Shown piece by piece: positions 1,037 to 60,921 of a stretch of 64,000 bases of DNA. Location: assembly GCA_009692425.1 (NCBI GenBank), contig SHZF01000006.1, positions 5,704-69,703 on the forward strand, in the 5' to 3' direction. The stretch's first letter is position 1. Every line of letters begins with the position of its first letter. The notes under the pieces were generated by a model. It did no database searches and was not told the origin of the DNA. It saw nothing but the letters and a program-made list of their open reading frames with translations. The position numbers and the translations under genes are program-made. This DNA is from Myxococcales bacterium. Lineage in GTDB: Bacteria; Myxococcota_A; UBA9042.

Positions 1037-1294
1037 TACGACCTCTGTGCGACTAGAGCGCGGCCCGCAATCTAGCAGAGCGGCGGGTTGGGCGGGAAGG
1101 CACCGGGTCGGCCTGACGTCGGCCTGACGCTGCGTTGAGGACAATGGCGAGCGCTGCCGTCGTCGTTTGGCGTCTCACCCCCTGGCAGTTTCGCGAGACG
1201 CCTCGGATCGGAAACCGGGGGTGGACGGGGAGGCTGTGCGCCTCTGACGCCAAAAACCGATGCTATGTTCAGATCATACGATCGAGGAGCCAAC

Positions 1295-1310
1295 TGGCAC
1301 GCACCTTGCT
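1295..1310 (+). promoter_or_regulatory. Candidate sigma-54 (RpoN) promoter, TGGCAC-gcacc-TTGCT, 49 nt upstream of the comM ATG
   Basis: Exact -24 TGGCAC at 1295-1300, 5-nt spacer, -12 TTGCT at 1306-1310. An unusually AT-rich patch (1262-1285, ctatgttcagatcatacgatcg) lies just upstream in a ~70% GC background. A GGGAG RBS sits 7 nt before the ATG at 1359. Confidence 0.5.
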
Positions 1311-14872: not shown

Positions 14873-17599
14873 ATGCACGACGTCGGCACAGCGCTCCTTT
14901 ATGTGACGTTTGTCGCGATGCTCGGCACGACGCTGACTGCATTCGCGGGTGCGGCCCTGCGCTCGCCAGGCTGGCTGCAGGCGGCGCGCCACGGCCTCAT
15001 GGCGACGTGGCTGCTCATCCTCGCGATGTCGGCGTGCCTGGTCGTGGGCCTGGTGACGCACGATTTTCGCAACCAATACATCGCCGCCTACACCGACGTC
15101 GACATGCCGTTGCCGTACCTGCTCTCGGGATTCTGGGGCGGCGAGAAGGGCGCGCTGCTTTTCTGGGTCACGGCCCTGACGACGTTCGGCGTCTTTGCCA
15201 TCTTGCGCAACCGCAGCCAGACGCCCGTTTTTTTGGGCTGGGTCACGGGCTTCCTCGGGTCGGCGATCGCGTTCTTCGTGATGCTGATGGTGTTCGAGTC
15301 CAACCCGTTCGAGACGTTTGCCGCCGGGCTCGGTCCCGCCGACGGCAAGGGCATGAATCCGCTGCTGCAGAATCCGCTGATGGCCGTGCACCCGCCAAGC
15401 CTGCTGACGGGGTACATCGCGTTTACGTTGCCCTACGCCTTCGGCATGGCCGCGCTGGCGACGGGCCAACTCGACGCCCAGTGGCTGCGCGATACCCGCA
15501 AGTGGACGCTCGTGTCGTGGCTTTTCCTGTCTCTGGGCCTGATCCTCGGCGGCGCATGGGCCTACAACGAACTCGGCTGGGGCGGGTTCTGGATGTGGGA
15601 CCCGGTCGAGAACGCCGGCCTGATCCCATGGTTCACCGCCACCGCGTTCCTGCACTCGGTGATGATCCAGGAACGCCGCAACATGCTGAAGCGCTGGAAC
15701 GTGGTACTCGTGTGCCTGACCTTCCTGCTCACCGTGTTTGGCACGTTCTTGACGCGCAGCCAGTTGATCGATTCCGTGCACGCGTTTGCCGACTCGACGC
15801 TGGCGAGCTACTTCTTGTGGTACATGGCGGCGATTATCGTCGTGTCGACGGCCCTGATCGCGTGGCGCTGGGGTCAATTGCGCGCCGAGGCGTCGCTCGA
15901 CTCGCTGCTCAGCCGAGAAGCCTTCTTCGTGTTCAACAACGTGCTGCTTGTCGGGTGCGCTTTTGTGGTGCTGTGGGGCACCGTCTTCGGCCAGATCAGC
16001 GAGGCCAAGCCGGTGCAGGCGCTGCACAATGCCTTTGCCGACGCGCTGGCGACGATCGGCGTACACATCGAACCGCTGGCCGGCAAGGTCCAACTCGGCG
16101 AGCCGTGGTTCAATCGCGTGATGACGCCGCTCGGCCTTGGCCTCCTGTTGATGACCGGCGTCGGTCCGCTCATTGCGTGGCGGCGCGCAACCCGGCGCAA
16201 TTTCGAGCGCAACTTCGCCCGGCCGATCGTGTGGAGCGCGCTGGTGACGCTGTTCGTGTCCGTGGGCTGGCTGGCGCGCGATGTCGTCCAGACCCGCGAC
16301 GGTGGGCCGTGGGGCGCCGCCTGGACCCGCACGGTCGATGCACTCGATGGCTCGCACGCCTGGGGAATCGCCTGCATCGGGCTGTCGGCGTTCGTGATCG
16401 TGGCGATCGCCCGCGAGTTCCACGTTGCCGCCCGCGCCCGCCAGCGGGGCCACGGCGACAGCTACGGGCTCGCGCTCGTGTTGCTGACGCTCAAGAACAA
16501 GCGGCGCTACGGCGGCTACGTCGTCCACATCGGCGTGGTGTTCTGCTTCCTGGCGTTCGCGGGCAATGCATTCCGGACGTACCAGCCCGAGATCGCGCTG
16601 CATCCCGGTGAGTCCGTCGCAGTCGGTGGCTACGGTCTGACGTTTGCCGGTGGCGAAGACGTGTGGGAAGCCGACGGTGCCTACGTCTCGAGCCGCGCCC
16701 GCATTGTCGTGACGGCCCGCGACGGCACCGTTGCCCCGGAGTTGGTGGCCACGGTGCTGGCCACAGTGCGCCGCTTCGACGCGGCGGCGACGGCTGTCGC
16801 ACGTCCGGGAAGTGCGGCGCTCGCGATCGATTTCGCCGACGCCGCAGCCGGGCGGCGCTTTGCGGCAGCGTGGACCGTGCCGCGGTTGGGCCGCCTGGCG
16901 ACGCCCGCCCACGTCCCTGCCGCCGATGCGCGCGTGCTGGCGCTCGAATTGTCGTCGGCGATGATGGAAGTGGCCGCCGTCGCGCCGCAGGCCGTGATGA
17001 AGGCGTTTGCCGAGGTGCGCAGCGCCGTTGGCCAGTACCCGGTCCCAGTCGAAGTGCGCACGACACCGGGCCAGACGCGCTTCGAACTCGCATTCGGGGA
17101 TGCCGCCGCGCGCAGCCAGTTCGCCGCCGACTTGCGCCGAATCCCGTTGGCCGGCTTCGAATTCGTCGCAGTCGATGCCGACGCCAACCTTGCCGCTGGG
17201 GTGCGGGTTCAAGCCGTCCCGCTTGGTGCCGGCGCAGTCTTGGTGCCCGAGGTCCGCAACTACAAGAAACACCAGAGCCCCACCACCGAAGTCGCCATCC
17301 AGTCTGCGTTCGATCACGACCTGTACCTGGCGATGCGCCCGGCCCAGGCGGCGCGTTCGGTCAGCTTGCTCGCCGTGGTGTTCCCGTTCATCGGCCTGCT
17401 GTGGTTGGGCGCGATTACGCTGCTCGTGGGCGGGGCGATCTGCTTGCTGCCGGCCCAGCGGACGGCGGCGGCGACCGAGTCCGATCCTGAGTCCTCCCCA
17501 TTGACCGGCCACGGCGGACATTCCCAGCCACCGCCGGCTTCCGGCCTCGGCGACGGAATGCCTGCGCCGGCGGTTGCGCTCGCGGTGGAAGGGTCGTGA
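14873..17599 (+). CDS. ccmF: Cytochrome c-type biogenesis heme lyase CcmF with a ~200-aa insertion in the C-terminal periplasmic region
   Basis: WWD domain (WGGFWMWDPVENAGLIPW), conserved His-containing TM helices, the C-terminal PEVRNYKKHQSPTTEVAIQSAFDHDLYLAM block and a final TM helix. Start chosen at MHDVGTALLY (14873). The in-frame ATG at 14852 is also possible. Confidence 0.85.
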   Translation: MHDVGTALLYVTFVAMLGTTLTAFAGAALRSPGWLQAARHGLMATWLLILAMSACLVVGLVTHDFRNQYIAAYTDVDMPLPYLLSGFWGGEKGALLFWVTALTTFGVFAILRNRSQTPVFLGWVTGFLGSAIAFFVMLMVFESNPFETFAAGLGPADGKGMNPLLQNPLMAVHPPSLLTGYIAFTLPYAFGMAALATGQLDAQWLRDTRKWTLVSWLFLSLGLILGGAWAYNELGWGGFWMWDPVENAGLIPWFTATAFLHSVMIQERRNMLKRWNVVLVCLTFLLTVFGTFLTRSQLIDSVHAFADSTLASYFLWYMAAIIVVSTALIAWRWGQLRAEASLDSLLSREAFFVFNNVLLVGCAFVVLWGTVFGQISEAKPVQALHNAFADALATIGVHIEPLAGKVQLGEPWFNRVMTPLGLGLLLMTGVGPLIAWRRATRRNFERNFARPIVWSALVTLFVSVGWLARDVVQTRDGGPWGAAWTRTVDALDGSHAWGIACIGLSAFVIVAIAREFHVAARARQRGHGDSYGLALVLLTLKNKRRYGGYVVHIGVVFCFLAFAGNAFRTYQPEIALHPGESVAVGGYGLTFAGGEDVWEADGAYVSSRARIVVTARDGTVAPELVATVLATVRRFDAAATAVARPGSAALAIDFADAAAGRRFAAAWTVPRLGRLATPAHVPAADARVLALELSSAMMEVAAVAPQAVMKAFAEVRSAVGQYPVPVEVRTTPGQTRFELAFGDAAARSQFAADLRRIPLAGFEFVAVDADANLAAGVRVQAVPLGAGAVLVPEVRNYKKHQSPTTEVAIQSAFDHDLYLAMRPAQAARSVSLLAVVFPFIGLLWLGAITLLVGGAICLLPAQRTAAATESDPESSPLTGHGGHSQPPPASGLGDGMPAPAVALAVEGS

Positions 17600-18183
17600 G
17601 CGCGTTGGTGCTCGGCATCGACCCCGGCTCGCGCAAGATGGGATGGGGACTCGTCGCCGGCAGCGCCGAACGCCCGCGCCGCGTCGATGGCGGCACGCTG
17701 CGGCCGGACGTGCGCGCGGCCCTGCCAGACCGGCTCGGTTGGCTGCTGACGCAACTGCAGGCCTTGTACGCGGCCCATCCCGTAACCGCGCTGGCGGTCG
17801 AATCGGCGTTCGTGCGCGACAATGCCCGCACCGCCCTCGTGCTGGGTCAAGCCCGCGGCCTGCCGATCGCGCTCGCCGCCGCCCGCGGCCTGCCGGTGCA
17901 CGAGTACGCGCCGGCGCAGGTGAAGCGGCGCATCGTCGGGCAGGGCCGCGCCGACAAGCACCAGATGCGCGAAATGGTGAAAGTGCTGCTGAATCTGCCC
18001 AGTCCTCCACCCGAAGACGAAGCGGATGCGTTGGCAGTCGCGCTCGCCCACCTGCGTGCCGCCCACTGGGCCCAGGCCGTCGCGCCGGCCATCGGCATCC
18101 CGCGTGCGGCGGCACCGGCGCGGACTGCGGCCCAAGACGCGTGGCTGCAAGCGCTCGATGCCACGCGCGGGAGGCGGCCGTGA
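17596..18183 (+). CDS. ruvC: Holliday junction resolvase RuvC
   Basis: LVLGIDPGSRKMGWGLV...ESAFV...ADALAVALAHL. The GTG start overlaps the ccmF TGA (GTGA). Confidence 0.9.
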   Translation: MSALVLGIDPGSRKMGWGLVAGSAERPRRVDGGTLRPDVRAALPDRLGWLLTQLQALYAAHPVTALAVESAFVRDNARTALVLGQARGLPIALAAARGLPVHEYAPAQVKRRIVGQGRADKHQMREMVKVLLNLPSPPPEDEADALAVALAHLRAAHWAQAVAPAIGIPRAAAPARTAAQDAWLQALDATRGRRP

Positions 18184-18788
18184 TCGGGTTCCTGCGCGGC
18201 ACCTGCCAACACGTCGGAGACGACCACGTCGTACTCGATGTCGCGGGCGTCGGCTACGAAGTGTTCGTGACCGAGCGTTTGCGCGGCGCGGCGGCCCTGG
18301 GCGTCGCGCTGGAGGTGCGCGTGCACACCGAAGTGCGTGAAGACGCGATCATCCTGTTCGGGTTCGAGCACGCCGCCGAAAAGACGCTATTCCGGTTGCT
18401 GCTGTCGGTCAGCGGGGTCGGGCCGCGCGGCGCCTTGGCCCTGCTGGGCGCGCTGCCACCCGGAGAACTCGCCGTGGCCGTGCGCGACGGCAAGGTGGCG
18501 GCGCTGACGAAGGCGAAGGGCATCGGCAAGAAGACGGCGGAGACGATCATCATCAAGCTGCGCGACCGACTGCCCGCCGACCTGCTGTGGACGTCCGGGC
18601 CGACGCCGCCCGGTCTCACCTCTGTGCTCCCGCCCGGTACACGCGACGTGCTCAGCGCGCTCCAGAACCTCGGCTATCGGCCCGCGCTCGCCGAGCACGC
18701 GCTGGCCGAGGCGCACAAGGCGCATCCGGAGGCCGATTTCGACGGCCTGTTGCGGTCCGCGCTGGCAATGCTCCGGCGGCCCGGCTAA
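18180..18788 (+). CDS. ruvA: Holliday junction branch-migration protein RuvA
   Basis: [30 protein letters not shown]...[17 protein letters not shown]...[13 protein letters not shown]. The GTG start overlaps the ruvC TGA. Confidence 0.9.
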
Positions 18789-18975
18789 AGGCGCCATCGG
18801 AATTGGCCGGGTGTCCCGTGCGGTCCTTTGGGGCGCCATTTTCCTAGTTGGGGCGCCAAGCTCGCGACTTGCCCGACTCGACGGCGCCGGCAGAGGGATC
18901 GACTTGTTGGAGTCGGTATCCTACCTTCGGCCGCCGCCCCCGCTCACGCTACAGGCTGCCACCCGAGACCCGCCG

Positions 18976-20031
<1,056 letters not shown>

Positions 20032-31405: not shown

Positions 31406-34400
31406 TCAGGGCGTGCCGAGCTTGGCGCACAGGCGGTTGCGCAGCAGCGTAACACCCAGCTTCGAACGCACCGCCAGGTCGAAACAGCCGTCGCCGTCGA
31501 CGTCGGCGCGCGCGAGCGCTAGGGGCGTGTTCGCCGTGCGCAGCTTGCCCTCGTAGTGAATGAAGGCCGCCGACCCCGGCCCAGTCGCGTCGCTGACTGG
31601 CGCGCCGGTGCCCAGGTAGAATTCGACGACCGCCGCCTGGCGGTCGATGTAGGCGATGTCGGGCACGTCATCCTTGTTCACATCGACGGACAGCAGCGCA
31701 CCCACGTCGGCCTCCAGGTCCTCGGTCAGCGTCTGCTTGGGCTTGAACAAGGTGCCGTCGCCGCGAATGAAGCCGATGCTCGACGGCAGCGCACACAGCA
31801 GGTCCATCCACGCATCGCCGTCGAAGTCGTCGCACACGCAGGTCTTGTTGCCGGCGCCGATCACGAACTCCTTGGCCACGTCGGTGCCCAGGTTGCCGAC
31901 CGACCGGACGACCGAGACGTGGCCGAGCTTGCCGTTGATCGTGAACACGCTCGGCAGCTTCAGGCCCGGCCCCCACGGTGCCACGCACACATCGAAGGGG
32001 TCTTGCTCGACCTTGCGGTAGGTGACATCGATGTTCTTGGCCCACAGGCCGGATTTCGGGTCGATCCACTTCCACTGGTCCTTCTGCGGCACGTGTTTGA
32101 ACGTCTGTACGGTCAGCTTGCCGCCGGCCAATTCGCTCCGGAAGTAGCGGACGCGCGCCTCCAGGTACTGCTGCTTTTCGTTCGAGACGGAGCCACTGGA
32201 CTTCATCACCGTCGCGAGGTCGATCCGCTTGTCGCTGTCGAAGTCGCCGGTCGCGATGCCGATCGGGTTCCGACCGGCGGCGAGTGCCACCTGTGGCTTG
32301 ATGACGCACGGCTGCGATACCGAGCAGGCGGGCCCGACGGCAAACGGGTCCTTGTCTGTGCCCTGGAACAGGAAAAGGGAGGCTCGCTGGAGCGGCGCGC
32401 CGCTGCCGTAGCCCGACAGTGGCTTGGTCTTCTTTTCGTCGCCGGCAAAAAAGTTCTTGCAACAGAGTTGTTTGGGCAATTCCGGCTCGCCCGCTGCAGG
32501 TGCTGGCGGCGAATCGACACCGAACAGGTTGTCGACCTCGTTCGTAGCGGCCCACTCGCACGGTCCGCAGGCCGGCGACGAAACTGTGTCGTCGCCGATG
32601 TCGTAGTCCGCGTTATCACGGGTGAGCGCCAAGTCCGCGATTTTGTCGTCGGTCAGGTCGACCGCTCGGAGCGCAGACACGCTACCGAAGGAGGAAATTG
32701 TCCCTTGGCCGCAGTCCGCCGAGGCGCCGGACTGGGCGGCGTGGGCGTAGGGGGCGAACTCGCCCCCGCGCGGCGTCGGAAGAAGTTTCTTGTTGAAATT
32801 CATGTAGATGCTGATCGGCCATGCCGGCTTGTGGATTACCCCGCCGCCTTCGAGCACGCAAGTGCCCTGCGAGCCGGGCTGCATCGACCAGCTCGACTTA
32901 CCTATCACCAACAATTCAGGAAACTTGTCCGTGCCGAGGTCGATAAAACTGAAGTCCGCCAGTTCGGACGGAGCCAGGGCGTTCGTGTTCTCCGGCCGCG
33001 CGCACAGGTGGTAGGCGTTGGGCGCCGCGTATTCGCCGTCCGGCAGGCCCCACGCGACGTTGACTCCGTTCGGCGCAGCGTCGATCGAGACGATGTCCTG
33101 GGCGCCGTTGCCATCGAGGTCGACCGCTTTCGCCGCGCCTACCGCGCCTCCCAGCACCCACGACCGGAAACACATTGCCATATGGCTGCTGTCCGAGGCC
33201 AGCACCGGCAAGACGGTCACCTCGCGCCCCGCCGCCGTCACGATGAGGTACGGAGAGCCCTTGGGGCCGATCGGTGCGACCTGTACGGCCGTCGCGTTGA
33301 CTCCGACGATCTGGCGATAGGACCCGGGATCATAGAAGAACGTGCCGTCGTGCTTGCCTTTCAACCACCGCAACCCCTTCGTTGTGGCGACGATGAGGTC
33401 CGGTCCGTCGTTCGTACCGGGAGCGCTCCACTCGACCGGTACGATGAGCGTCGTGTCTGCGTAGTCGGGCAACACGAGACCGTCCTGGGCTTGTTCCAGG
33501 CGCCCGTCGACGCCGGCATTGCGATAGCAACTGATCACGGGGCGGGTGCCTTCGCCCACGCACACGTCCGGCAGCGACTTGTCGTCCTTGTAGTAGTCAC
33601 CCACCGCGATGGAAGTGACCTGGGTGACGCCCTTGTTGACGACGGGTGCTTCCAACTCCTTGAAAATCGTTCCGATCGTGATCGTCGCGAGGTCGAGTTC
33701 GCCACACGGGACGGCAGCGTCCGCTTTTTTCGCCTTGCAGGTCGGTTGCGGCTGCAGGCGCACGACCGAGAGCCCGAAGTTGTCAGACTTGGCACCCACG
33801 ATCAGGTCCTTCGCGCCGTCCTTGTCGAGGTCTGCAAAGGCCGCCGACAGCGGTTCCTCGGGCAACGACCGCTTGTCGAGCACCTTGAACGTGCGCACGG
33901 TCTTCTCGCCATCCTTCGTCTTGACCGTCTTGTCCCACGCCAGCAGCGCCCATGCGGTGGGCCCCGTCACGGCATCGATGCCGACCGCGATGACGTCGAG
34001 GTCCGCGTCGCCGTCCAGGTCTTCGACGAACAGGCGTTTGACGTTGCCGACCAGAATCCGGTAGGGCGCTTGGTGCAACTCCGCGTTATCAACAATCTTT
34101 CCGTCTTTTCCGAGAAGTGGCGCGCCCGTCGCATCCAGTGCGATGTCTGGCGCCAGCGGGTCGAACGCTCCGCCATGCACGGCGGGATCGTCGGCCCGCG
34201 GCAGGCCACGGCGTAGCACGAGGCCCTCGGGCGTGGCGACCAGTGCGTCGAGCAGCGTGTCCTCAGGGTCGAACTGATCGATCGCGAAATCGTTGATTTT
34301 CTGTAAGAACTTGTCCGATTCGTCCGAATTGCCCAGGAACGTGGGTTGCCGCACGATGCGCACTCTTGCCTCGACGCGGCTCCCATTGCCTACGGCGTCG

Positions 34401-35140
34401 GTGCTGTCGAGCGCGACGATCCAATGCGCGCTGCCGTCGAAGCGCCGGTCGATGGTGTGCTTGAAGGCGCCGGGCTTGGTCAGCTTCAACAGTTCCACCG
34501 GTTCGGCGCCCTCCTGGTCAAGGCGCACGGTGAGGCTCGCGCTGCCGAAGTTCTTCTCGGCTACCGACCCGATCACGTCGAACTTGCCGATGTACACGCG
34601 CCCGTCGAGTTTCTGCTTCTGTGGGTCTGTCAGCGCCAACGTCGGACCGCAATTGTCGACCTCGACATCGACGGACGCCTGGCCCGTCGTGCCGGTCGGC
34701 TTGCCATCGGCCGTCACGATCAACGACACCGAGGAGCCACACTTGAAGAGGAACGTTTTTTCATTCGGCTTCTTCGGGTCGTCCTGCTTCGTGTCGGTGG
34801 CGAACGTACACGAGAAGGTGGTGCCCGTGCGTGTGCACGCGCCCTTCGTGTCCGCCGCCGCGATCGCCATCGCAGACACCGACGCGCCGTTCTTCGTGGT
34901 GACGGAGCCGGACACCGTGACGGTCTTCGAGACGATTGCGGTCGGCTGCGCACTCGGAGATTTGATCTGGACCACGATTTCGGCCGTCGGCGTCGTCGAG
35001 CCCGCGCTGCCCTCACCGCCTGCGGTGCTACAGCCGACCCCGGTACCGGCGCACCAGAGCGCAGCGAACGCGGCGTGCATTGCCAGGTGAGAACGCAGCC
35101 GAGAGGTGTCCCGTCCCGGTCGAAAGACCTTGCTTGCCAT
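31406..35140 (-). CDS. Large FG-GAP/VCBS-type repeat lipoprotein (about 1225-1244 aa), secreted or outer-membrane
   Basis: Multiple Ca-binding loop motifs typical of integrin-alpha/FG-GAP repeats (DLDGDADLDV, DLDKDGAKDL, VDLDGNGAQDIV, DFDSDKRIDL, DFDGDAWMDL, DVDGDGCFDL). Lipobox WCAGTGVGCST. The true start may be the internal Met at 35083. Confidence 0.75.
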   Translation of the reverse strand: MASKVFRPGRDTSRLRSHLAMHAAFAALWCAGTGVGCSTAGGEGSAGSTTPTAEIVVQIKSPSAQPTAIVSKTVTVSGSVTTKNGASVSAMAIAAADTKGACTRTGTTFSCTFATDTKQDDPKKPNEKTFLFKCGSSVSLIVTADGKPTGTTGQASVDVEVDNCGPTLALTDPQKQKLDGRVYIGKFDVIGSVAEKNFGSASLTVRLDQEGAEPVELLKLTKPGAFKHTIDRRFDGSAHWIVALDSTDAVGNGSRVEARVRIVRQPTFLGNSDESDKFLQKINDFAIDQFDPEDTLLDALVATPEGLVLRRGLPRADDPAVHGGAFDPLAPDIALDATGAPLLGKDGKIVDNAELHQAPYRILVGNVKRLFVEDLDGDADLDVIAVGIDAVTGPTAWALLAWDKTVKTKDGEKTVRTFKVLDKRSLPEEPLSAAFADLDKDGAKDLIVGAKSDNFGLSVVRLQPQPTCKAKKADAAVPCGELDLATITIGTIFKELEAPVVNKGVTQVTSIAVGDYYKDDKSLPDVCVGEGTRPVISCYRNAGVDGRLEQAQDGLVLPDYADTTLIVPVEWSAPGTNDGPDLIVATTKGLRWLKGKHDGTFFYDPGSYRQIVGVNATAVQVAPIGPKGSPYLIVTAAGREVTVLPVLASDSSHMAMCFRSWVLGGAVGAAKAVDLDGNGAQDIVSIDAAPNGVNVAWGLPDGEYAAPNAYHLCARPENTNALAPSELADFSFIDLGTDKFPELLVIGKSSWSMQPGSQGTCVLEGGGVIHKPAWPISIYMNFNKKLLPTPRGGEFAPYAHAAQSGASADCGQGTISSFGSVSALRAVDLTDDKIADLALTRDNADYDIGDDTVSSPACGPCEWAATNEVDNLFGVDSPPAPAAGEPELPKQLCCKNFFAGDEKKTKPLSGYGSGAPLQRASLFLFQGTDKDPFAVGPACSVSQPCVIKPQVALAAGRNPIGIATGDFDSDKRIDLATVMKSSGSVSNEKQQYLEARVRYFRSELAGGKLTVQTFKHVPQKDQWKWIDPKSGLWAKNIDVTYRKVEQDPFDVCVAPWGPGLKLPSVFTINGKLGHVSVVRSVGNLGTDVAKEFVIGAGNKTCVCDDFDGDAWMDLLCALPSSIGFIRGDGTLFKPKQTLTEDLEADVGALLSVDVNKDDVPDIAYIDRQAAVVEFYLGTGAPVSDATGPGSAAFIHYEGKLRTANTPLALARADVDGDGCFDLAVRSKLGVTLLRNRLCAKLGTP

Positions 35141-35385
35141 GCTTCATCCCGTGGCGGTGCCCTGGCTGCCGCACTGCCGCACCCTGCATTTTCCCGTACG
35201 GCCCTGCCGGGTCAAGGAAAACCGCGTGGGTCGGCAGATCGCGTCCACTTTGGTCGGCGGTCCGCCTCGCCCCCAACCTGGGTGAGACCGTGACTGAGAC
35301 GGGGACCGAGACCGAGACCGCCCCAGTCGCCTGGAATCTCTCGTGACCTGTGAATCGGAAATAAGGATTCGCATTCGCGGCTCGT

Positions 35386-35401
35386 TGGCACGCTCGTTGC
35401 A
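35386..35401 (+). promoter_or_regulatory. Candidate sigma-54 promoter, TGGCAC-gctcg-TTGCA (perfect consensus), 45 nt upstream of the radC ATG
   Basis: -24 TGGCAC at 35386-35391 and -12 TTGCA at 35397-35401. An AT-rich patch (35351-35375, gaatcggaaataaggattcgcattcg) lies immediately upstream. A GAGGAA RBS precedes the ATG at 35446. Confidence 0.55.
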
Positions 35402-35445
35402 TCCCTGCATGGCACGCCGGCTGGACGCGGCGGCGAGGAACTGTC

Positions 35446-36084
35446 ATGGCGCAGTTGTGCACATACTTGGCGCCGCGGAGCGCCGCGGGTTCCGGATCCG
35501 TCCAAACACTCTCCGATGTCGACCTTGTCGCGGTCTTGATCGGGCCGACGCCAGACGACCGGTGGCGGGCCTGCGCCCTGGTGGCCCGCCAGGCGAGCCT
35601 CGCCGCGCTCGGGGTGACCCTCCGCGCGCCGGGCCACGATCTCGATGGCGCGTCGCACAGGCGGTTGCTTGCCGCTGTCGAGTTGGGGTGCCGCGCGCTG
35701 GCCGACAAGTGCGATGCGGCGCAATTGCGGCGGGTCCAGGACCTCGTGGCGCGCTACCGGGACCTCGCCCTGTCCGACGCCGAACAACTCGTCGTCGTAT
35801 GCCTCGATGCAGGCCGACATCTGGTGGCTGAGTATCGATTTCACGGCGGACTCGACAGCGTCACGGCGCCGCTGCCCCTGCTGCTGCGCCGCGTGCTGGA
35901 GTCGGGCGCTCCCGGCTTTGCGCTGGTCCACAACCATCCGAGCGGCGACCCGCGGCCGAGCGCGGCCGACCGTGCGTTTACGGAGCGGGTCGCCGCGGCG
36001 GCGCGCCTGTGCGATCTGCGCCTTTTCGAGCACGTCGTGGTGGCTGCCCGTGGCTGGGCGCGGGTACCCGGCGGTACGTCGTGA
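35446..36084 (+). CDS. radC: RadC-family JAB/MPN domain protein
   Basis: N-terminal LSDVDLVAVLIG, plus the JAMM motif HNHPSGDPRPSAAD. Confidence 0.85.
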   Translation: MAQLCTYLAPRSAAGSGSVQTLSDVDLVAVLIGPTPDDRWRACALVARQASLAALGVTLRAPGHDLDGASHRRLLAAVELGCRALADKCDAAQLRRVQDLVARYRDLALSDAEQLVVVCLDAGRHLVAEYRFHGGLDSVTAPLPLLLRRVLESGAPGFALVHNHPSGDPRPSAADRAFTERVAAAARLCDLRLFEHVVVAARGWARVPGGTS

Positions 36085-36632
36085 GCGCTTGTGCGACCGC
36101 GGCGTCGGCGCGAACGAGGCACGGGCCTTCGACCGTGCTGGGACCGGTCGTCGGCTGGGCCTTGTTGCTGGCCGTCGCCGGGCTGCGTGCCGTGGTGCCT
36201 GCGCCCGATTTTGCAGGGGCCACGGCAGAGCCGCGCGCGAACGAGACCCGCCTTGCCGCCCGAGGTTGCCTCGACCCCGTCACTGCGACCGCCCCGCAAT
36301 GGCAGGCGCTGCCCGGCGTGCGCCGCAAGCTGGCCGAAGCCCTCGCGACGCGCTGCCGCGGCACGCTCGACTGCCGAGCAGGCGCTTTGCCGGACGGTGT
36401 GGGCGGCCTGGGCCCCGTGCTGCGCGCGCGGGTTGGTCCTTGGCTATGCCAGCGCGGTCCCGCCGGGCACCTTCTCGAGTTCGAAGGCGTCGTGAAGCAC
36501 GCGCACGGCCAGTTCCGTGTACCGATCATCGATCACGACGGAAATCTTGATCTCGCTGGTCGAGATCAAAAGGATGTTGATCCCTGCGTCGCCGAGAGCC
36601 TGGAACATGCGCAACGCCACGCCGGGCTGTGA
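36081..36632 (+). CDS. ComEA-like helix-hairpin-helix protein. The 3' extent is uncertain: the ORF as read overlaps the convergent lysC by 189 nt.
   Basis: The GTG start overlaps the radC TGA (GTGA). An N-terminal hydrophobic segment ([13 protein letters not shown]) is followed by [20 protein letters not shown], which resembles the ComEA HhH motif (LNTA..EEL..LPGIG...A..I). The first in-frame stop is at 36632. Confidence 0.35.
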
Positions 36633-37706
36633 CCGCATGCCGGCGCCGACGACCGAAACCTTGGCGACGCCCTTGTTACAGTCCAGCGTCGTGAAGCCGA
36701 TCGCGTCGTGCTGCGCGTTCATCAGTTCAACCGCGCGGTCGGCGACGTTGCCCGCCACCGTGAAGCAGACATCGGTGCGGCCGTGGATCGCCGGGTTCTG
36801 GATGATCACGTCGACGTTGATGTGATCGTTCGCGAGCGCGCGAAACAGTGCGGCGGCCTTGCCCGGCTGGTCCGGTACGCCGTGCACCGTGAGCCACGCC
36901 GTGTTGCGGTCGTGGGCGATGCCGATGACGACCGCCCCTTCCATCCCGCTCTGCATCGCTGCCTCCTGTGGATCGGCGTCCGGCACGACCCAACTGCCCG
37001 GGCCGTCCACGAATGTGGACAGGCAATGGATGCGGACCCTGTATTTCAAGGCGAATTCAACTGATCGCGCCTGCAGCACCTTGGCGCCGAGACTGGCGAG
37101 TTCGAGCATCTCCTCGCACGAGATCACGTCGATGCGGCGTGCCTTGGCGTACACATTGGGGTCGGTCGTGTAGATGCCGTCGACGTCGCTGTAGATTTCG
37201 CAGGCATCGGCCTGCACCGCCGCCGCCAACGCAACCGCCGACAAGTCGCTGCCGCCGCGGCCGAGCGTGGTGATGTTGCCTGCCGCATCGACGCCCTGGA
37301 AGCCGGCCACGACCACGATCGCCCCGTCCGCCAGCGCTTCTTGCACCGGCTCGGCGTCGATCGTCTGGATGCGAGCCTGGCCATGGGAGCTGTCGGTTTC
37401 GATCCGCACCTGGTGGCCCAGAAAGCTGCGCGCGTCGGCCCCTTGCTCCTGCAGCGCCAAGGCCAGCAGCGCGATCGATACCTGCTCTCCGGTCGCAAGC
37501 AGCACGTCGATTTCGCGATCGTGTGGCTTCTTCGTCAGCTGGCTGGCGAGTTGGAGCAGGCGGTCGGTTTCACCGGCCATCGCCGACACCACGACGACGA
37601 CGCGGTGGCCGGCGCGGTGCGTTGCCAGCGCGCGGCGGGCGACGAGTTGGATGCGTTCGGCGCTGGCCATGGAGCTGCCGCCGAATTTCTGGACGATCAA
37701 GGACAT
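36444..37706 (-). CDS. lysC: Aspartate kinase
   Basis: [14 protein letters not shown]...[15 protein letters not shown]...two C-terminal ACT domains. Confidence 0.9.
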
Positions 37707-52027: not shown

Positions 52028-53074
52028 TCACAGGGTGATCTCGTCTTTCAACTCGCGGCCCATCAGGTTGCGCAGCGCGTCCAGCGGCGCCAGGCCCTCG
52101 TGCAGCACGCGGTAGGTCTGCTCCAGGATGGGCGCTTCGACGCCGAGTTCCTGCGTCAGGCGCCACGCGGAACGGCTGGTGAGCACGCCTTCGGCCACGG
52201 CCGTCATCGACGCGAGGATGGCGCCGATCGACTCCCCGCGTCCCAGCCGCAGCCCCACCGTGCGGTTGCGCGACAGGTCGCCGGTGCACGTCAACACGAG
52301 GTCGCCGATGCCGGAAAGCCCTTGCAACGTAAGTGGATTTGCGCCCTTGCGTACTGCGATCCGGGTGATTTCAGCGAGCCCGCGCGTGATGAGGCCGGCG
52401 CGCGCGTTGTGGCCGAAGCCGAGGCCATCGGCGGCCCCGACTGCGATCGCGATCACGTTTTTCAGGGCGCCACCGACTTCGACGCCCTCGACATCGTTGG
52501 ACGCGTAGCAACGAAAACGGTTGCCCGACAGTTCCTTCTGCAGCCAGCGCGCCAGCCGTGCGCTGCGGGCCGCCACCGTGACAGCGGTCGGGCTGTTGAT
52601 GGCCACTTCGGCCGCAAAGGACGGCCCGGACAGGTAGGCGAGCCCCGCGTGCATACGGCGCGGCAGCACGCGCTCGTAGATTTCGCTGATGAGCTCGAGT
52701 GATTCGTTGTCGATCCCCTTGGAACAACTGACGATTACGTGTTCGTCCGTCAGCCATGGTTCCATCCGGCGCGCCAGCCCGGCCACGTGCGGAGTTGGCA
52801 TCACGGTGAGCAGCACGCGCGAGCGGCGCACGCACGCTTCGAGGTCCGCGGTCGCGTGCAGGGCCTCGGGCACCAAGTGGCCGGGGAGGTAGCGCACATT
52901 CTCACGGCCGTCTTGGATCTGTACCGCGACGCTCGGATTGTGTGCCCACAGCAGCGTCGGCTTGCCGCAGCGTGCGGTGTGGATGGCGAGTGCTGTGCCC
53001 CAGGCACCGGCGCCGACCACGCCGATCGGGTAGGCGTCGCGCAGCGGGAGTCCCGTGGGCAGCGCGGCGGTCAT
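52028..53074 (-). CDS. gpsA: NAD(P)H-dependent glycerol-3-phosphate dehydrogenase
   Basis: IGVVGAGAWGTALAIHTA.....SCSKGI...LSGPSFAAEVA....GALKNVIAIAVG. Start at MTAALPTGL. The upstream part of the 52028-53887 ORF is junk. Confidence 0.9.
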   Translation of the reverse strand: MTAALPTGLPLRDAYPIGVVGAGAWGTALAIHTARCGKPTLLWAHNPSVAVQIQDGRENVRYLPGHLVPEALHATADLEACVRRSRVLLTVMPTPHVAGLARRMEPWLTDEHVIVSCSKGIDNESLELISEIYERVLPRRMHAGLAYLSGPSFAAEVAINSPTAVTVAARSARLARWLQKELSGNRFRCYASNDVEGVEVGGALKNVIAIAVGAADGLGFGHNARAGLITRGLAEITRIAVRKGANPLTLQGLSGIGDLVLTCTGDLSRNRTVGLRLGRGESIGAILASMTAVAEGVLTSRSAWRLTQELGVEAPILEQTYRVLHEGLAPLDALRNLMGRELKDEITL

Positions 53075-54549
53075 GGACGGCCTCCGGGGCGCGGTTCGTG
53101 GGCCCGCGCGGCGTGGTACAGGTCGTGCAAGCTGCGGTCGAACGCGGCCGGGCGGCAGCGGCGACGGGCCCAATCGCGCAAGGCGCGCACCTGCTCCGCG
53201 TAGGTTTCCACGAGCGGCACCGATTTGGAAAGCACCGCCTCGACGTCGTCGGTCGTCAACGCGCGCCCTTCGCTGAAGGCAACGGCCAGCGCTTCGACCA
53301 GCGCTTCGGCCACCTCGGCGCCGGTCAGCTTGTCCGCGGCATCGGCGAGGCGGCCCGTATCGAAGTCCGCCGCAGCGCGGCCCGAGGCCCGCAGGTGGAT
53401 GGCGACGATCTCTTCGCGCACGCGGCGGTCGGGCAGGTCGACAAAAAACGTCTCGTCGAAGCGGCCCTTGCGCAGCAGTTCCGCCGGCAGGTGGTCGGCC
53501 CGGTTCGCCGTCGCCGCCACGAACACGCCGGGCCGCGGGCGGTCGAGCCAGGTGAGCAGCGCGCCGAACAGTCGGGCACCCGACTCCGACGGCGCATCGC
53601 CGACGGTGGCGAAAGCCTTGTCGATCTCGTCGATCCACAGCACGCACGGTGCCATGGCTTCGGCGACCTGCAGCGCCCGCCGCAGGTGCTCGTCGGGCGA
53701 CCCGTGCTCGGCGTAGAGGCGTGCGAGGTCGAGGCGCGCCAACGGCAGCCCCAGTGCGCCGGCAGACGCCTTTGCAATCAGGGATTTGCCGCAGCCCTGC
53801 ACGCCGACCATGAACGCCCCGCGCGGCGGCGGCAGGCCATAGGCGCGGGCGGCGGGTGTCAGGGCCTCGCGCCGCCGCAGCAGCCACGCCTTGAGCGCAT
53901 CGAGCCCCCCCACGCGGTCCAGTTGCGGCACGTCGTCGACCACTTCGAGCACGCTCGACCGGGCCACAAGATCGCGTTTTTCGTGCTGGAGTTCGGCGAC
54001 TGCCACCGGCCCGGCCAGCCCCGCCTGGCGCACGCGCTTGAGCGCCCGCCGCGCCTGACCAAGCGTCAGCCCGGCCAGCGCCGCGACCGCCGCGTCGGTG
54101 TGTCCGGCGTCGGCGCCAGCAAAGGCGGCTTGCGCGAGTGGCGCCAGTTCCGGTGGGCCGGGCAGGGGCAACTCCACCACGGCCAGGTCACGGTCGAGGT
54201 CGGTCGGTGGCCACGGTCGGGCGGCCAGCAGGACGACCGCATGGCCGGCACGCTCGATCGCGTCGAGGTGTTCGAGCAACAGGCGCGCGAACCCGGCGTC
54301 GCCCAGCAGTCGATCCGCCTGCGGCAGCGCGAGCACGGTGGGCCGCTCCTGCTGGACCAGTCGTTCGAGGAGTTCCCGCGCCACACCGGCAGGCTCGAGA
54401 GCGCCGAAAGTCGCCACTTGGACCGTCAGCGGCGACCCCTGTGCAGCGACGCCGAGCACGCGCACCGCGTCCCGTTCGTCGCTATGGAGCACCCCGACCA
54501 GCGGGTAGCGGGCGCGCAGCCGATCGCGCAGCGGGGTGGCCCGGTCCAT
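53071..54549 (-). CDS. AAA+ ATPase (492 aa): N-terminal ~215-aa degenerate nucleotide-binding-like domain plus a classical AAA module (GVQGCGKS / VLWIDEIDKAF / TANRADHLP..LLRKGRFDE)
   Basis: Walker A, Walker B, sensor-1 Asn and Arg-finger seen in translation. A 4-nt start overlap with gpsA downstream. The start lies 4 nt after the stop of the NtrC-family regulator upstream. Confidence 0.75.
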   Translation of the reverse strand: MDRATPLRDRLRARYPLVGVLHSDERDAVRVLGVAAQGSPLTVQVATFGALEPAGVARELLERLVQQERPTVLALPQADRLLGDAGFARLLLEHLDAIERAGHAVVLLAARPWPPTDLDRDLAVVELPLPGPPELAPLAQAAFAGADAGHTDAAVAALAGLTLGQARRALKRVRQAGLAGPVAVAELQHEKRDLVARSSVLEVVDDVPQLDRVGGLDALKAWLLRRREALTPAARAYGLPPPRGAFMVGVQGCGKSLIAKASAGALGLPLARLDLARLYAEHGSPDEHLRRALQVAEAMAPCVLWIDEIDKAFATVGDAPSESGARLFGALLTWLDRPRPGVFVAATANRADHLPAELLRKGRFDETFFVDLPDRRVREEIVAIHLRASGRAAADFDTGRLADAADKLTGAEVAEALVEALAVAFSEGRALTTDDVEAVLSKSVPLVETYAEQVRALRDWARRRCRPAAFDRSLHDLYHAARAHEPRPGGRP

Positions 54550-54552
54550 GGC

Positions 54553-56019
54553 CTACCCGCCCGGCCGCGGCGGTCTGCCGACCGGCGCAGGCACATCGAT
54601 GGCGTACTGCTTGATCTTGTACTGCAGGTTGCGCGGCGAAATGGCCAGCAGGTCGGCCGCGTGCGTGCGGTTGCCGGCCGTCTGCTGGAGCGCCGCGAGG
54701 ATCAGCGCGCGCTCCGTCGCCTCGACTGCGTCGGGGATCGACAGCGTGTCGCGCGCGGGCAATGCGACGGCCTCGTGCCCACCCGGGCTGCGATCCAGGC
54801 GCACGAGTTCCGCCGTCAGGACGCCCCCATCGGCCAGCACGCAGGCCTGCTCGATCACGTTGCACAGTTCGCGCACGTTGCCCGGCCAGTGGTGGGCGAT
54901 CAGCTTGGCGCGGGCCGCGGGCTGCACCGCGCGAATCTGCGTGCCGAGTCGTTGGTTCGTCTTCTCGACGAAGTGTTCGATCATCATGTCGATGTCGTCG
55001 CGCCGCTCGCGCAACGGCGGCACGGCGAGTTCGATCACGCTCAGCCGGTAGTACAGGTCTTCGCGGAACCCACCGTCGCGCACCCGGAGGCGCGGGTTCA
55101 CCGCCGCCGCCGCCAGCACGCGCACATCGACTGCGATCGGCCGGTTCGAACCAACGCGGCGCACCTCGGATTCCTGCAGCACGCGCAGCAGCTTCACCTG
55201 GAGCGAGAGGGGCAGGTCGATGATCTCGTCGAGGAAAAGCGTGCCCCCGTGGGCCTCCTCGAACAAGCCACGGCGATCCTGGTGGGCATCGGTAAAGGCG
55301 CCGCGCACGTGGCCGAACAGCTCCGATTCCAGCAAGTTCGGCTGGATGGCGCCGCAGTTCACCGCGACGAACGGCTGGCGCGCCCGCGGGCTGGCGAGAT
55401 GCAGCGCGCGGGCGACGAGTTCCTTGCCACTGCCCGACTCGCCCGTGATCAGCACCGTCGAGGCAAACCGCGCGATGCGTTCCACCTGGCGGAACAGCGC
55501 GAGGATGGGCGCCGTCTGGCCGACCATGCCGTAGAAGCTACGCCCCTGCGGAATCACGTCCTCTTCTCTCACGGTCGCTGCGTCGTCCGCCGCCACATCG
55601 ACGACCAATGGCGGCGGCGCGAGCGCGTGCTGGCGAGCCTTCTCCACCGCGAGCCGCACCTTGAGTTCGGCTTCGGCGAGGCGGAACGGTTTCGACAGGT
55701 AGTCGACGGCGCCCAGCCGAATCGCTTCGAGCGCCGTTTCGAGGCTGCCATACGCGCTCATCACGACGGTCGGTGGCAGGCGCTCCTGACGGGCCAGCAC
55801 TTCGATGACTTCGAGGCCGGTCATGCGCGGCATCTGGAGGTCCATCAACAGCAAGTCCGGCATGCGTTGGCGCAAGGCGAGCAGGGCCTGGGCGCCGTCA
55901 TGGGCGCACTGGGTCTCGATGCCTGCCCGCTCGAGGTGGTCGGCCACCAACGCAGCGAACGGCACCTCGTCATCCACGATCAGCACGAAAAGTGGCTGCT
56001 TGCCGACGGGAATCGCCAT
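54553..56019 (-). CDS. Sigma-54-dependent response regulator (NtrC family): receiver domain, AAA+ sigma-54 activator domain and Fis-type HTH
   Basis: Receiver LIVDDE...DLLLMDLQMP. EBP core VLITGESGSGKELVARALH, the GAFTGA motif variant GAFTDA, ESELFGH. C-terminal HTH AGNRTHAADLLAISPRNLQYKIKQY. Confidence 0.9.
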   Translation of the reverse strand: MAIPVGKQPLFVLIVDDEVPFAALVADHLERAGIETQCAHDGAQALLALRQRMPDLLLMDLQMPRMTGLEVIEVLARQERLPPTVVMSAYGSLETALEAIRLGAVDYLSKPFRLAEAELKVRLAVEKARQHALAPPPLVVDVAADDAATVREEDVIPQGRSFYGMVGQTAPILALFRQVERIARFASTVLITGESGSGKELVARALHLASPRARQPFVAVNCGAIQPNLLESELFGHVRGAFTDAHQDRRGLFEEAHGGTLFLDEIIDLPLSLQVKLLRVLQESEVRRVGSNRPIAVDVRVLAAAAVNPRLRVRDGGFREDLYYRLSVIELAVPPLRERRDDIDMMIEHFVEKTNQRLGTQIRAVQPAARAKLIAHHWPGNVRELCNVIEQACVLADGGVLTAELVRLDRSPGGHEAVALPARDTLSIPDAVEATERALILAALQQTAGNRTHAADLLAISPRNLQYKIKQYAIDVPAPVGRPPRPGG

Positions 56020-56096
56020 CCTTGGTTGCGCCTCACGAGACTGCGCTTTGTGTTCACCGCGCCGCAGGCGTGGCACTCAATTGGCACGCCAATGTA

Positions 56097-56372
56097 CTAG
56101 GAAGCCTGCTTGCGCGCCTCGTCCAAGAAGGCCACCCGCGTGTCGTGCAGGAGCCGATCGAGCAGCGCCGCCTCCTCGGGGGTCAAGTTGCCGTGCGTCT
56201 TGGCGCGCAGCATGACGAGCATGTCGATCGACTGGCGCGCCATCTCGATGTTCGAGTCGCCGTGGTGGCCGGTGGGGTCGGGCACGCGACCCAAGTGCAC
56301 CATCGTGGAGCCCGCCAGGGACAAGATGAAGGTCGAGAAGTCGATGCTGCCCGGAGCGTTCGTCGAGGTCAT
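56097..56372 (-). CDS. Small conserved protein (91 aa), DUF1844-like
   Basis: IDFSTFILSLAGSTMVHLG....MARQSIDMLVMLRAKTHGNLTPEEAALLDRLL matches the pattern I recall for DUF1844 family proteins. Same strand, 77 nt upstream of the regulator. Confidence 0.55.
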   Translation of the reverse strand: MTSTNAPGSIDFSTFILSLAGSTMVHLGRVPDPTGHHGDSNIEMARQSIDMLVMLRAKTHGNLTPEEAALLDRLLHDTRVAFLDEARKQAS

Positions 56373-60700: not shown

Positions 60701-60803
60701 GCTTGCCGAGGAACCGGCCCAGGGTGCGCGCCTTCGTCGGAGACTCGACGATGACGAGCACGGGCCCGAGGGGCGCTGCGCCGTGCGAAGTCTTGCTTGC
60801 CAT
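57741..60803 (-). CDS. topA: DNA topoisomerase I with C-terminal Zn-ribbon-like / RFG(P/A)Y repeats and a Lys/Ala-rich basic tail
   Basis: TOPRIM VIVESPTKARTL, active-site Tyr region GFITYMRTDS, repeated GRFGAFVK / GRFGWYLQ / GRFGDFV / GRYGPYVT / GRFGPYVT motifs, then the tail KPPKAKPRRGTKRAATGPRTGAQTGKRTAKQAAPAKTVAAK... Start at MASKTSHG. The upstream ORF extension is rejected. Confidence 0.9.
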   Translation of the reverse strand: MASKTSHGAAPLGPVLVIVESPTKARTLGRFLGKPYIVEASVGHVRDLVERKADLAEGDERRSARWVNYGVNLDNHFEPLEEIYFVPPDKKRQIDTLKAALKTAGQLYLATDDDREGEAISWHLREVLDPKRKVPTSRLVFHEITKEAIDHAIAHPRPLDEHLVVAQRARRIVDRLYGWDVSRLLWGKIKPSLSAGRVQSVALRMLVERERQRIAFVTAAWWDVTGRFAPQRDATAFDAGLLRVGDRKLADGRDFDDVTGQLKDPRVLQLDEAGARALAERLAGRPARVKSKDVRPQTLRPYPPFTTSTLQQEANRKLRMSARDAMRVAQQLYESGFITYMRTDSTTLSEQALQAARTLISDQYGPANLPPKPRRYQTKSANAQEAHEAIRPAGTHFQPVDAVASAMGRDAARLYDLIWKRTVASQMVDAQVEQTTLDIAVDDAVFRATGRVTRNPGFLLAYVEGSDDPEAALDARDRPLPALEAGDALIWGQPPVRVDGHETRPPARLTDASLVKSLEEQGIGRPSTYAAILQNLLDKEYAFRKGQALVPTFLGMAVVAMLEKHMPHLVDYGFTAEMESRLDAVARGEAKAGAYLRAFYEDGFAQVGDSGPVPGLSKLLETVRDRIDPAEASAVPIGSAPSGEAVVVRIGRFGAFVKIGDRTASVPEEQAPDELTVARAVEMIEARQKGDAPLGTDPTTGEAVYLRNGRFGWYLQLGGPANGSAKTEDGAKEPRRVSLSKGMEPGALDLETALAQLALPRELGDDPRTGKAVVAKTGRFGDFVESDGQTRSLDVGVLAARITLTEALAALRQPKAGQRAMLRALGTHADKAIELWNGRYGPYVTDGAANKTLPKGTAVDGVTLAHALALLDGAAAQKAGRTLGKDPDGGGEVRLLDGRFGPYVTNGTLNASLARGTQPDDLTLEGALDRLRHFGKPPKAKPRRGTKRAATGPRTGAQTGKRTAKQAAPAKTVAAKNSPKAKSAATTTAARSRLAPEPVAAAPVIQAARIVRRPGPTAPA

Positions 60804-60921
60804 GGTTGCCCTTGCCTTGCCGCGCAGTGCGGCCAGCCGATCCCGCTCGCTATGACTCTCGAAGCCCCGCGACAACGCGCTGTGCGGGCGCCGTTGGGCT
60901 CTGCTCTGTGTCGGCCACGGC

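Follow-up and report, generated by a model that had tools for sequence, protein, structure and literature searches.

Conserved predicted sigma-54 promoters with a common upstream repeat motif precede radC and comM-recA-ssb in an uncultured member of the Myxococcota

Here we present an analysis of a 64-kb stretch of DNA (hereafter referred to as the window) from contig SHZF01000006.1 of the Myxococcales assembly GCA_009692425.1, with a focus on a predicted sigma-54 (RpoN) promoter in front of radC and of a small open reading frame (ORF) that overlaps the radC stop codon. The window is ~69% G+C (A+T 31%). On its left, radC is flanked by a divergent gene for a large FG-GAP repeat protein, and on its right a convergent aspartokinase gene is followed by genes for a YbbR protein and CdaA. 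A second copy of the same promoter motif lies some 34 kb away and faces comM, which is followed by recA and ssb. Both promoters are preceded by repeats with a GAGAC core. Both are also located in divergent spacers opposite genes for very large secreted proteins, a pairing that is kept in relatives. The coordinates of all features are collected in Table 1. No RNA family was found anywhere in the window with Rfam.

The -24/-12 element upstream of radC, TGGCACGCTCGTTGCA, matches the sigma-54 consensus exactly, and its GG and GC are exactly one helical turn apart. A first-pass annotation of the same DNA had read TGGCAC-gctcg-TTGCA at 35386-35401 as an RpoN promoter just before radC, preceded by an AT-rich patch. 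Both features are present: 44 nt separate the element from the start codon (ATG, 35446), and the 45 nt in front of it are clearly richer in A+T than the window as a whole (Table 1). This A+T-rich spacer holds an inverted repeat, GAATC (35352-56)/GATTC (35366-70), and is a possible bend or integration host factor (IHF) site. A Shine-Dalgarno sequence, GAGGA (35435-39), occupies positions -11 to -7 relative to the radC ATG, and transcription is predicted to start near 35412. A second TGGCACGC occurs at 35410-17, 24 nt downstream of the -24 element and inside the predicted 5' leader, and one orthologous locus (L001, see below) has TGGCAGGG at the matching position. The copy at 35410-17 was dismissed as a tandem promoter, for it has no -12 partner.

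We then asked how often such an element would be expected in DNA of this kind. Without mismatch, TGGCACN5TTGCW occurs twice in the window when both strands are counted, before radC and before comM, against a dinucleotide-shuffle mean of 0.07 per window, and none of 100 shuffles reaches two. When sites are scored against 12 consensus positions, these two alone reach 12/12. Each lies between genes and faces the gene that follows it; most sites that score 10/12 lie inside genes. Matches with one mismatch are not enriched (5 found versus 1.9 expected; 6/100 shuffles reach 5); those at 30570, 53639 and 56071 were dismissed, being within genes, overlapping a gene start or having a broken GG. Short motifs do occur by chance, and the lack of enrichment among the one-mismatch matches would be expected if the motif before radC were a coincidence in G+C-rich intergenic DNA and radC were transcribed from an ordinary sigma-70-type promoter. 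Against this stand the excess of exact sites and the failure to find any sigma-70-like promoter facing radC between 35000 and 36800. The conservation of the sites at the right place and on the right strand in 3/3 orthologous radC loci and 3/3 orthologous comM loci, described below, in effect refutes it, and we regard a chance match as very improbable indeed.

Orthologous radC loci were reached through RadC homologues that are 77% (L001), 52% (L002) and 45% (L003, L004 and L005) identical to the window protein. The last three are copies of one sequence, leaving three independent loci. L001 to L005 all have the neighbourhood of the window, with genes for the FG-GAP protein, RadC, aspartokinase, YbbR, CdaA and DHPS. 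The -24/-12 element is kept in all three independent loci (TGGCATGTTCATTGCA in L001, TGGCATGGCGCTTGCT in L002 and TGGCACGGCGCTTGCT in L003), on the right strand and 46-70 nt before radC. The remainder of the spacer is too diverged to be aligned with MAFFT, which failed to bring the L002 and L003 sites into line, and the comparison was anchored by hand on the sigma-54 motif. Across the four loci (the window included), the sole invariant blocks of the spacer are the sigma-54 element and the hexamers of a sigma-70-type promoter that faces the FG-GAP gene (GTCAAGGAAAA and CATTTTC on the plus strand). In a 330-nt spacer of such composition, TGGCAY-N5-TTGC would occur by chance on a given strand with a probability of ~5e-4 per locus. 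Since the site is kept while the other spacer DNA cannot be aligned, it reads as a clear phylogenetic footprint. This strongly backs the RpoN promoter proposed in the first-pass annotation, and it is highly probable that 35386-35401 is a real sigma-54 promoter.

A breadth sample of 80 diverse loci was taken from the matches listed by a RadC-alignment scan of contigs; among the matches listed, most belong to unrelated phyla and not to the close clade. Sigma-54-like sites were found upstream of radC in four of the eight loci labelled Myxococcota or Deltaproteobacteria versus 2 of 72 others (Fisher P = 6e-4). In L170 (Myxococcaceae) and L171 (Labilithrix), radC stands in a different context and is preceded only by weak GGCAT/GGTAC-N5-TTGC elements, 12-13 nt before the radC ATG. 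The sigma-54-like elements of L027 (2437-2452), L170 (~2470-2486) and L171 (2473-2488) end 12-15 nt before the ATG, a spacing that would give a nearly leaderless transcript.

The second exact element, TGGCACGCACCTTGCT, lies in front of comM. The first-pass annotation had counted the radC locus as the second DNA-processing unit in the window with a sigma-54 signature, and this count is correct, the other unit being comM-recA-ssb behind 1295-1310. The site is kept in all three orthologous comM loci for which DNA was available (ComM 61-71% identical), as TGGCACGGCGCTTGCG in L167, TGGCACGGCTCATGCA in L168 and TGGCACCGATGTTGCT in L169, 27-40 nt before the comM ATG. The order comM-recA-ssb, with short spacers, recurs in these three loci and in two further contigs, and the layout around the ComM relatives consists of a gene for a large secreted Kelch-type protein (-), comM-recA-ssb (+) and a radical-SAM gene (-). 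No sigma-54 site facing comM was found in metagenome ComM relatives that are at most 54% identical, a result that is uninformative on conservation within the clade. At 1107-1128, ~170-190 nt before the comM -24 element and near the start of the divergent lipoprotein gene, GTCGGCCTGAC occurs twice in tandem without mismatch. The 87 nt that separate comM from recA contain a weak hairpin of terminator type with TTTTT behind it (2938-2956); the corresponding gaps of the relatives are shorter and do not conserve it.

A comparison of the two promoter regions for a shared upstream site, as the first-pass annotation had proposed, revealed repeats with a GAGAC core before both -24 elements. At radC these form an array of three 12-nt units at 35283-35318, TGAGACCGTGAC, TGAGACGGGGAC and CGAGACCGAGAC (3 x 12 nt with a repeat finder; period 6 and 6.2 copies with Tandem Repeats Finder); nowhere else in the 64 kb are there at least four GRGAC/GTCYC pentamers per 60 nt. 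At comM the core is part of a perfect inverted repeat, GGCGTCTC-N18-GAGACGCC. Extended to all eight promoters (window radC, L001, L002 and L003; window comM, L167, L168 and L169), the comparison placed clusters of GRGAC/GTCYC pentamers ~60-145 nt upstream of the -24 element in 8/8. In L001 and L003 at radC and in L168 at comM, clusters of GAGAC(C)/GGTCTC are placed relative to the promoter as in the window. L002 has instead GTCCCAT-N3-GTCCCAT ... ATGGGAC-N2-ATGGGAC-N3-ATGGGAC before radC, and L167 has GTCCCAT-N2-GTCCCAT ... ATGGGAC-N2-ATGAGAC before comM. A further locus, L173, comes from JGI 3300045005, the source sample of L002, and its ComM and upstream region are identical to those of L167. 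The heptamer-variant radC locus (L002) and comM locus (L173/L167) thus very probably derive from one organism, and the change of motif in this lineage appears to have hit both the radC and the comM loci.

The A+T content of the spacer between repeats and promoter exceeds that of its own locus by at least 10 percentage points in six of the eight promoters and by 7 points in L168; L003 is not enriched. Because the position of the GRGAC repeats, the A+T-rich spacer and the constant geometry fit a sigma-54 activator, we read the repeats as a candidate enhancer, or upstream activator site, for an enhancer-binding protein. They are not known to match the sites of the activators Nla28, Nla6 or NtrC. 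With a repeat motif that is shared and co-varies between the two loci, co-regulation of the radC unit with comM-recA-ssb is supported. We consider it probable that a single activator is shared by the radC and comM units, and the joint proposition, that the sigma-54 promoters are real and that their activator is shared, seems to us likely to a similar degree.

Features that weigh against this proposition are consistent with a different one, in which both sigma-54 promoters are real and separately controlled, and the GRGAC repeats are either simple repeats or operators of the divergent propeller-protein genes (the FG-GAP gene at 31406-35140 and the lipoprotein gene that starts at 1036 on the minus strand). 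The 6-nt period of the radC array is microsatellite-like, and the arrangement of the repeats differs, with direct repeats at radC versus an inverted repeat at comM. Repeats that lie between divergent genes could serve the neighbouring large secreted propeller-protein genes, by which both promoters stand in the window and in relatives, and no GRGAC cluster was found at the more distant Myxococcota radC loci that bear sigma-54-like sites. Enrichment of the pentamer over the local background has per-locus Poisson P values from 4e-8 to 0.01, which are optimistic, since GRGAC was seen by eye at the radC loci and then checked at comM; the comM loci, examined afterwards, are a partial independent test. 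Separate control does not readily account for the replacement of GAGAC(C) by ATGGGAC at both loci in one lineage, for the constant distance between motif and -24 element in all eight promoters, or for the presence of a conserved sigma-70-type promoter of the FG-GAP gene's own, located further away. We therefore think that separate control is quite unlikely, and retain a shared activator as the preferred reading.

Table 1 Features of the radC and comM loci and of other parts of the window.
Feature	Position	Strand	Remarks
Sigma-54 -24/-12 element before radC, TGGCACGCTCGTTGCA	35386-35401	+	GG 35387-88, GC 35399-400; exact consensus, 16/16
GAGAC(C)/GGGAC array, three 12-nt units TGAGACCGTGAC, TGAGACGGGGAC, CGAGACCGAGAC	35283-35320	+	66-103 nt upstream of radC -24
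A+T-rich spacer	35341-35385	+	49% A+T over 45 nt versus 31% in the window
radC, RadC-like JAB/JAMM protein, 212 aa	35446-36084	+	Pfam PF04002 2.9e-22
Small ORF coupled to radC	36081-36632	+	GTG 36081 overlaps radC TGA 36082-84 (GTGA)
Sigma-54 -24/-12 element before comM, TGGCACGCACCTTGCT	1295-1310	+	Exact match; 48 nt before comM ATG 1359
Perfect inverted repeat GGCGTCTC-N18-GAGACGCC	1169-1202	+	93-126 nt upstream of comM -24; 100% complementary
comM/yifB	1359-2903	+	Relatives carry ChlI/Mg_chelatase domains
recA	2991-4009	+	RecA 1.5e-120
ssb	4091-4447	+	SSB 2.7e-29
NtrC-type activator (receiver, sigma-54 AAA+, HTH_8)	54553-56076	-	Sigma54_activat 5.4e-67
dprA	60922-61902	-	PF02481 2.5e-39; between rsmB and topA, directly upstream of topA
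ruvC and ruvB, presumably ruvA between	17596-20031		DNA-recombination unit
FG-GAP repeat protein, 1244 aa	31406-35140	-	Left of radC
Spacer, 305 nt	Between FG-GAP gene (31406-35140) and radC (35446)		Divergent genes
Sigma-70-type promoter TTGACC-16-GAAAAT	35188-35215	-	Faces divergent FG-GAP gene
Aspartokinase	36444-37706	-	Converges on radC/small ORF; YbbR protein then CdaA beyond
Cys-rich lipoprotein-like gene	1-1036, off left window end	-	Opposite comM; Kelch-type in relatives

The presence in the window of a gene for an NtrC-type activator with a sigma-54 interaction domain suggests that the organism uses sigma-54. In this protein the loop that contacts sigma-54 reads GAFTDA instead of GAFTGA. 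Its gene is flanked by those for a DUF1844 protein (56097-56372) and an AAA ATPase (53071-54549). Nothing ties this activator to the GRGAC sites, and rpoN is not in the 64-kb window.

In the mechanism that we propose for the shared-activator reading, an AAA+ enhancer-binding protein would bind the GAGAC-type repeats ~65-105 bp upstream of the radC promoter, and the A+T-rich spacer would allow looping. By hydrolysing ATP, the activator would then open the closed RNA polymerase-sigma-54 complex, with transcription starting near 35412. The radC message would have a ~34-nt leader with the GAGGA ribosome-binding site, and ribosomes finishing radC would restart at the overlapping GTG, so that the predicted two-gene operon would yield RadC together with a periplasmic or membrane-anchored (HhH)2 (tandem helix-hairpin-helix) DNA-binding protein of ComEA type. 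The same design, with a GAGAC inverted repeat, an A+T-rich spacer and TGGCAC-N5-TTGC, would drive comM-recA-ssb 34 kb away, and because the promoter and repeat design is the same, the radC and comM units would form one activator-controlled regulon. What the sequences show are the motifs and their conservation, the repeats common to the two units, and the families and fold of the proteins; we infer that the promoters depend on sigma-54 in vivo, that one activator serves both, how the operons are built, that the small protein is periplasmic and binds DNA, and what the regulon does for the cell.

The first gene of the predicted operon encodes a protein that is 100% identical to NCBI protein EXR79_03135 from a Myxococcales metagenome-assembled genome. 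It passes the Pfam RadC model PF04002 easily (79.3 bits versus a gathering cut-off of 22.1), and the RadC motif E..HNHPSGD..PS..D is intact, with E113, H162, H164, S172 and D175 invariant in the homologue alignment. The G+C content at third codon positions is 0.82, and the pattern of G+C over the codon positions is that of coding DNA. The NCBIfam RadC models match at 1e-23, below the equivalog cut-off, and PRK00024 scores 83.8 bits versus 180. Unlike most homologues, the protein has no match to the N-terminal helix-hairpin-helix domain UPF0758_N (PF20582). These features identify it as a divergent member of the RadC family.

The second gene is a short ORF for which the first-pass annotation had claimed GTGA coupling to radC and a helix-hairpin-helix (HhH) motif peptide. 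The peptide is encoded as stated, and the overlap of start and stop codons is kept in orthologues, as TGATG in L001 and as ATGA in L003, where annotators had missed the gene. The G+C content by codon position fits the frame. On the strength of the orthologues with the same overlap, the codon pattern and further relatives, the ORF can be taken as a real gene. A word-indexed homologue search with the ORF returned only the protein itself; an exhaustive search of 1.8 billion representatives yielded 12 further relatives at E <= 0.001. The source records of six of these comprise two that are named 'hypothetical protein' and otherwise nameless ones. Nine of the 12 (108-152 aa, 36-48% identical) were aligned. 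In the family alignment, a hydrophobic N-terminal segment follows basic residues, four Cys are invariant, the motif ATAxDW(R/Q)xVPGVxR is conserved, and a GxGP hairpin is present without exception. In the window copy, a hydrophobic helix at about residues 20-38, which follows Arg-rich residues, is a putative membrane anchor or signal peptide, and an (HhH)2 domain spans about residues 60-125 (DNA ~36258-36455).

Whether this domain is related to ComEA, as the first-pass annotation had held, was addressed with models of sequence and of structure. A hidden Markov model search with the window copy gave no match to the ComEA or HhH_3 models, and no Pfam or NCBIfam threshold was reached (Pfam HHH E = 0.07-0.09). 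Four of 11 family members match Pfam HHH, including the L003 copy (6.7e-7 over two stretches, 29.3 bits versus a cut-off of 24). Among the curated ComEA models, HHH_3 (PF12836) detects 1 of the 11 members at 0.0011, below threshold, and the NCBIfam ComEA models detect none. A profile of the family compared with solved structures had as its best match the ComEA-related 2DUY from Thermus (E = 0.009), followed by PsbU and EEPD1, both of which presumably carry ComEA-type HhH domains; neither a profile of three orthologues nor a single-sequence phmmer search retrieved anything useful from the Protein Data Bank (PDB). An AlphaFold prediction from the single sequence had a predicted local distance difference test (pLDDT) score of 56 and no fold matches. 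With the family alignment, the AlphaFold (AF2) model of the domain reached a pLDDT of 83-94. The top two Foldseek matches of this model in the PDB are ComEA 2DUY (template modelling (TM) score 0.76, target-normalised; root mean squared deviation 1.9 Å over 63 columns) and Geobacillus ComEA 8DSS. Their E-values of 0.1-0.3 are weak, which is common for domains of only 65 residues. Since sequence profile, fold ranking and architecture agree, the description of the small protein as ComEA-like in fold and layout is supported, though it is no demonstrated member of the ComEA family. The earlier claim thus stands for the fold and architecture but not at the level of the curated models.

The 3' end of the small gene deserves separate description. 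The ORF and the aspartokinase gene converge and overlap by 189 nt (36444-36632). The last 52 codons of the ORF (36477-36632) are the antisense of the conserved 3' end of the aspartokinase gene, which encodes the ACT domain, and lie outside the conserved protein. In L003 the protein ends after "LCRPA", just at the aspartokinase stop codon, whereas the window copy lacks that stop. Another family member, P0247, likewise continues into sequence antisense to the aspartokinase ACT domain. The sequence of L006, an independent assembly, is identical to the read-through in the window, which argues that the tail is no assembly error.

What such a regulon would do is a question on which its gene content gives some guidance. 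With ComM, RecA, SSB and RadC joined to a ComEA-like protein that is predicted to be extracytoplasmic, it may serve the uptake and recombination of incoming DNA in a competence-like manner, a reading to which we give slightly less than even weight. A DNA-damage or replication-stress regulon, with the same promoters and an activator that stands in for LexA-type SOS control, unrelated to DNA uptake, is somewhat unlikely. It would sit well with recA and ssb, which are classic SOS genes, and comM is reportedly a core LexA target in Alphaproteobacteria, including the Caulobacter SOS regulon. Work cited in PMC1635313 connects RadC with recombination at stalled forks. A damage role would also agree with the finding that dprA, although in the window, has no such promoter, and that no type IV pilus, comEC or comF gene was seen in the 64 kb. 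It fits less well with a putatively anchored or secreted ComEA-type protein with four conserved Cys, which is coupled to radC and has no obvious role in cytoplasmic repair, or with ruvCAB, a typical SOS member that lacks the promoter. No LexA-type palindrome was recognised, and inspection by eye disclosed no convincing match upstream of comM to a Myxococcus-type LexA box (near GTTCAG). We lean towards the competence-like role over the damage or stress programme, while the data cannot separate the two, and we likewise lean on the putatively secreted ComEA-type protein coupled to radC as what tips the balance toward DNA uptake.

Several observations count against a competence-like regulon of this composition. 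Neither a sigma-54 site nor a repeat cluster was found upstream of dprA-topA, and dprA is the most diagnostic competence gene; in the ORF list for this region (57741-61902, minus strand), topA has a spurious ~230-aa N-terminal extension that overlaps dprA in another frame. The ruvC/ruvB unit (17596-20031) is likewise without sigma-54 promoter or repeat cluster. In the comM unit, the hairpin at 2938-2956 could attenuate read-through into recA, which may have a control of its own. In the small protein as encoded in the window, the first hairpin is degenerate (PGVRRK), and the protein passes none of the curated models. The small gene is absent from L002, where radC ends 12 nt from the aspartokinase gene, and the ComEA-like gene would hence be no obligatory partner of radC. 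The co-regulated, competence-like regulon suggested by the first-pass annotation is therefore supported in its first half, through the shared and co-varying repeats that connect radC with comM-recA-ssb, whereas the label 'competence' is not established, given the lack of the promoter at dprA-topA and ruvCAB and given that comM, recA and ssb would suit a DNA-damage regulon just as well.

We next compared the system with known ones. It resembles enhancer-dependent sigma-54 promoters of Myxococcota and Proteobacteria (such as NtrC-glnAp2, PilR-pilA and those under Nla-type activators in Myxococcus xanthus) in the exact spacing of the -24 GG and -12 GC, in a repeated upstream site at ~70-130 bp, in the A+T-rich spacer between them and in having an NtrC-family activator gene in the genome. 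It differs from the classical sigma-54 functions (nitrogen, flagella, pili, development and stress) in its targets, radC with the comEA-like gene and comM-recA-ssb. On evidence that is comparative throughout, we regard it as a predicted sigma-54 regulon of the enhancer-dependent kind that is unusual in the genes it targets. We take COG2003 to be RadC. A 2025 cross-phylum survey (PMC12316311) lists COG2003, termed a DNA repair protein, among the replication/repair COGs enriched for predicted sigma-54 promoters. In its text COG2003 is listed without taxa, sites or operon context, the supplementary files consulted contain no entry for COG2003 or COG0606, and neither comM-recA-ssb nor an enhancer motif nor a ComEA-like partner, all described here, is connected with it there. 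We found no experimental report in the literature that links sigma-54 to radC, comM, recA or competence genes.

The content of the regulon has parallels elsewhere. RecA, SsbB, RadC and ComEA are co-induced in the competence regulons of Streptococcus and Bacillus, under the control of ComX in Streptococcus pneumoniae and of ComK in Bacillus subtilis. In Alphaproteobacteria, LexA-controlled SOS regulons include recA, ssb and comM. They resemble our system in placing these three genes under one common control and differ from it in the means, which is LexA repression there and would be sigma-54 activation here. The competence regulon of Haemophilus influenzae has RadC, ComM, SSB and DprA as cytoplasmic members (PMC1635313). 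Late competence regulons (H. influenzae Sxy/CRP-S; ComX; ComK) share with our system a content of RadC, ComM, SSB, ComEA-type protein and, in Gram-positives, RecA. By contrast, control here would be by sigma-54 and an AAA+ activator, not by CRP-S/Sxy, sigma factor X or ComK, and dprA, to judge from the window, is left out. With ComEA itself (Thermus thermophilus 2DUY and Geobacillus stearothermophilus 8DSS), the small protein has in common a C-terminal (HhH)2 domain preceded by a putative N-terminal anchor or signal sequence. It differs in its four invariant Cys, in a degenerate first hairpin, PGV[RT]RK instead of PGIG, in its coupling to radC and not to comEC, and in failing the curated HHH_3/ComEA models; unlike Firmicute ComEA, it has no oligomerisation domain.

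Sigma-54 promoters are silent until an activator fires, and control of this type would therefore imply an on/off decision on recombination or DNA uptake, a decision that known bacteria take by LexA, ComK, ComX or Sxy/CRP. If confirmed, the regulon would be a new way of regulating horizontal gene transfer or genome maintenance, in a predatory phylum that is large and for the most part uncultured. Its cis-element, GRGAC repeats with TGGCAC-N5-TTGC, could be used to find the remainder of the regulon and its activator, and a previously unannotated family of small proteins would be named as a relative of ComEA. In its widest and more doubtful form, the proposal is that an uncultured Myxococcota clade controls genes of natural-transformation type (those for a divergent, periplasmic ComEA and for RadC, ComM, RecA and SSB) through sigma-54 and a dedicated AAA+ protein that recognises GRGAC. 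If true, this would be an undescribed kind of competence master switch in place of ComK, ComX or Sxy/CRP-S, with recA under sigma-54.

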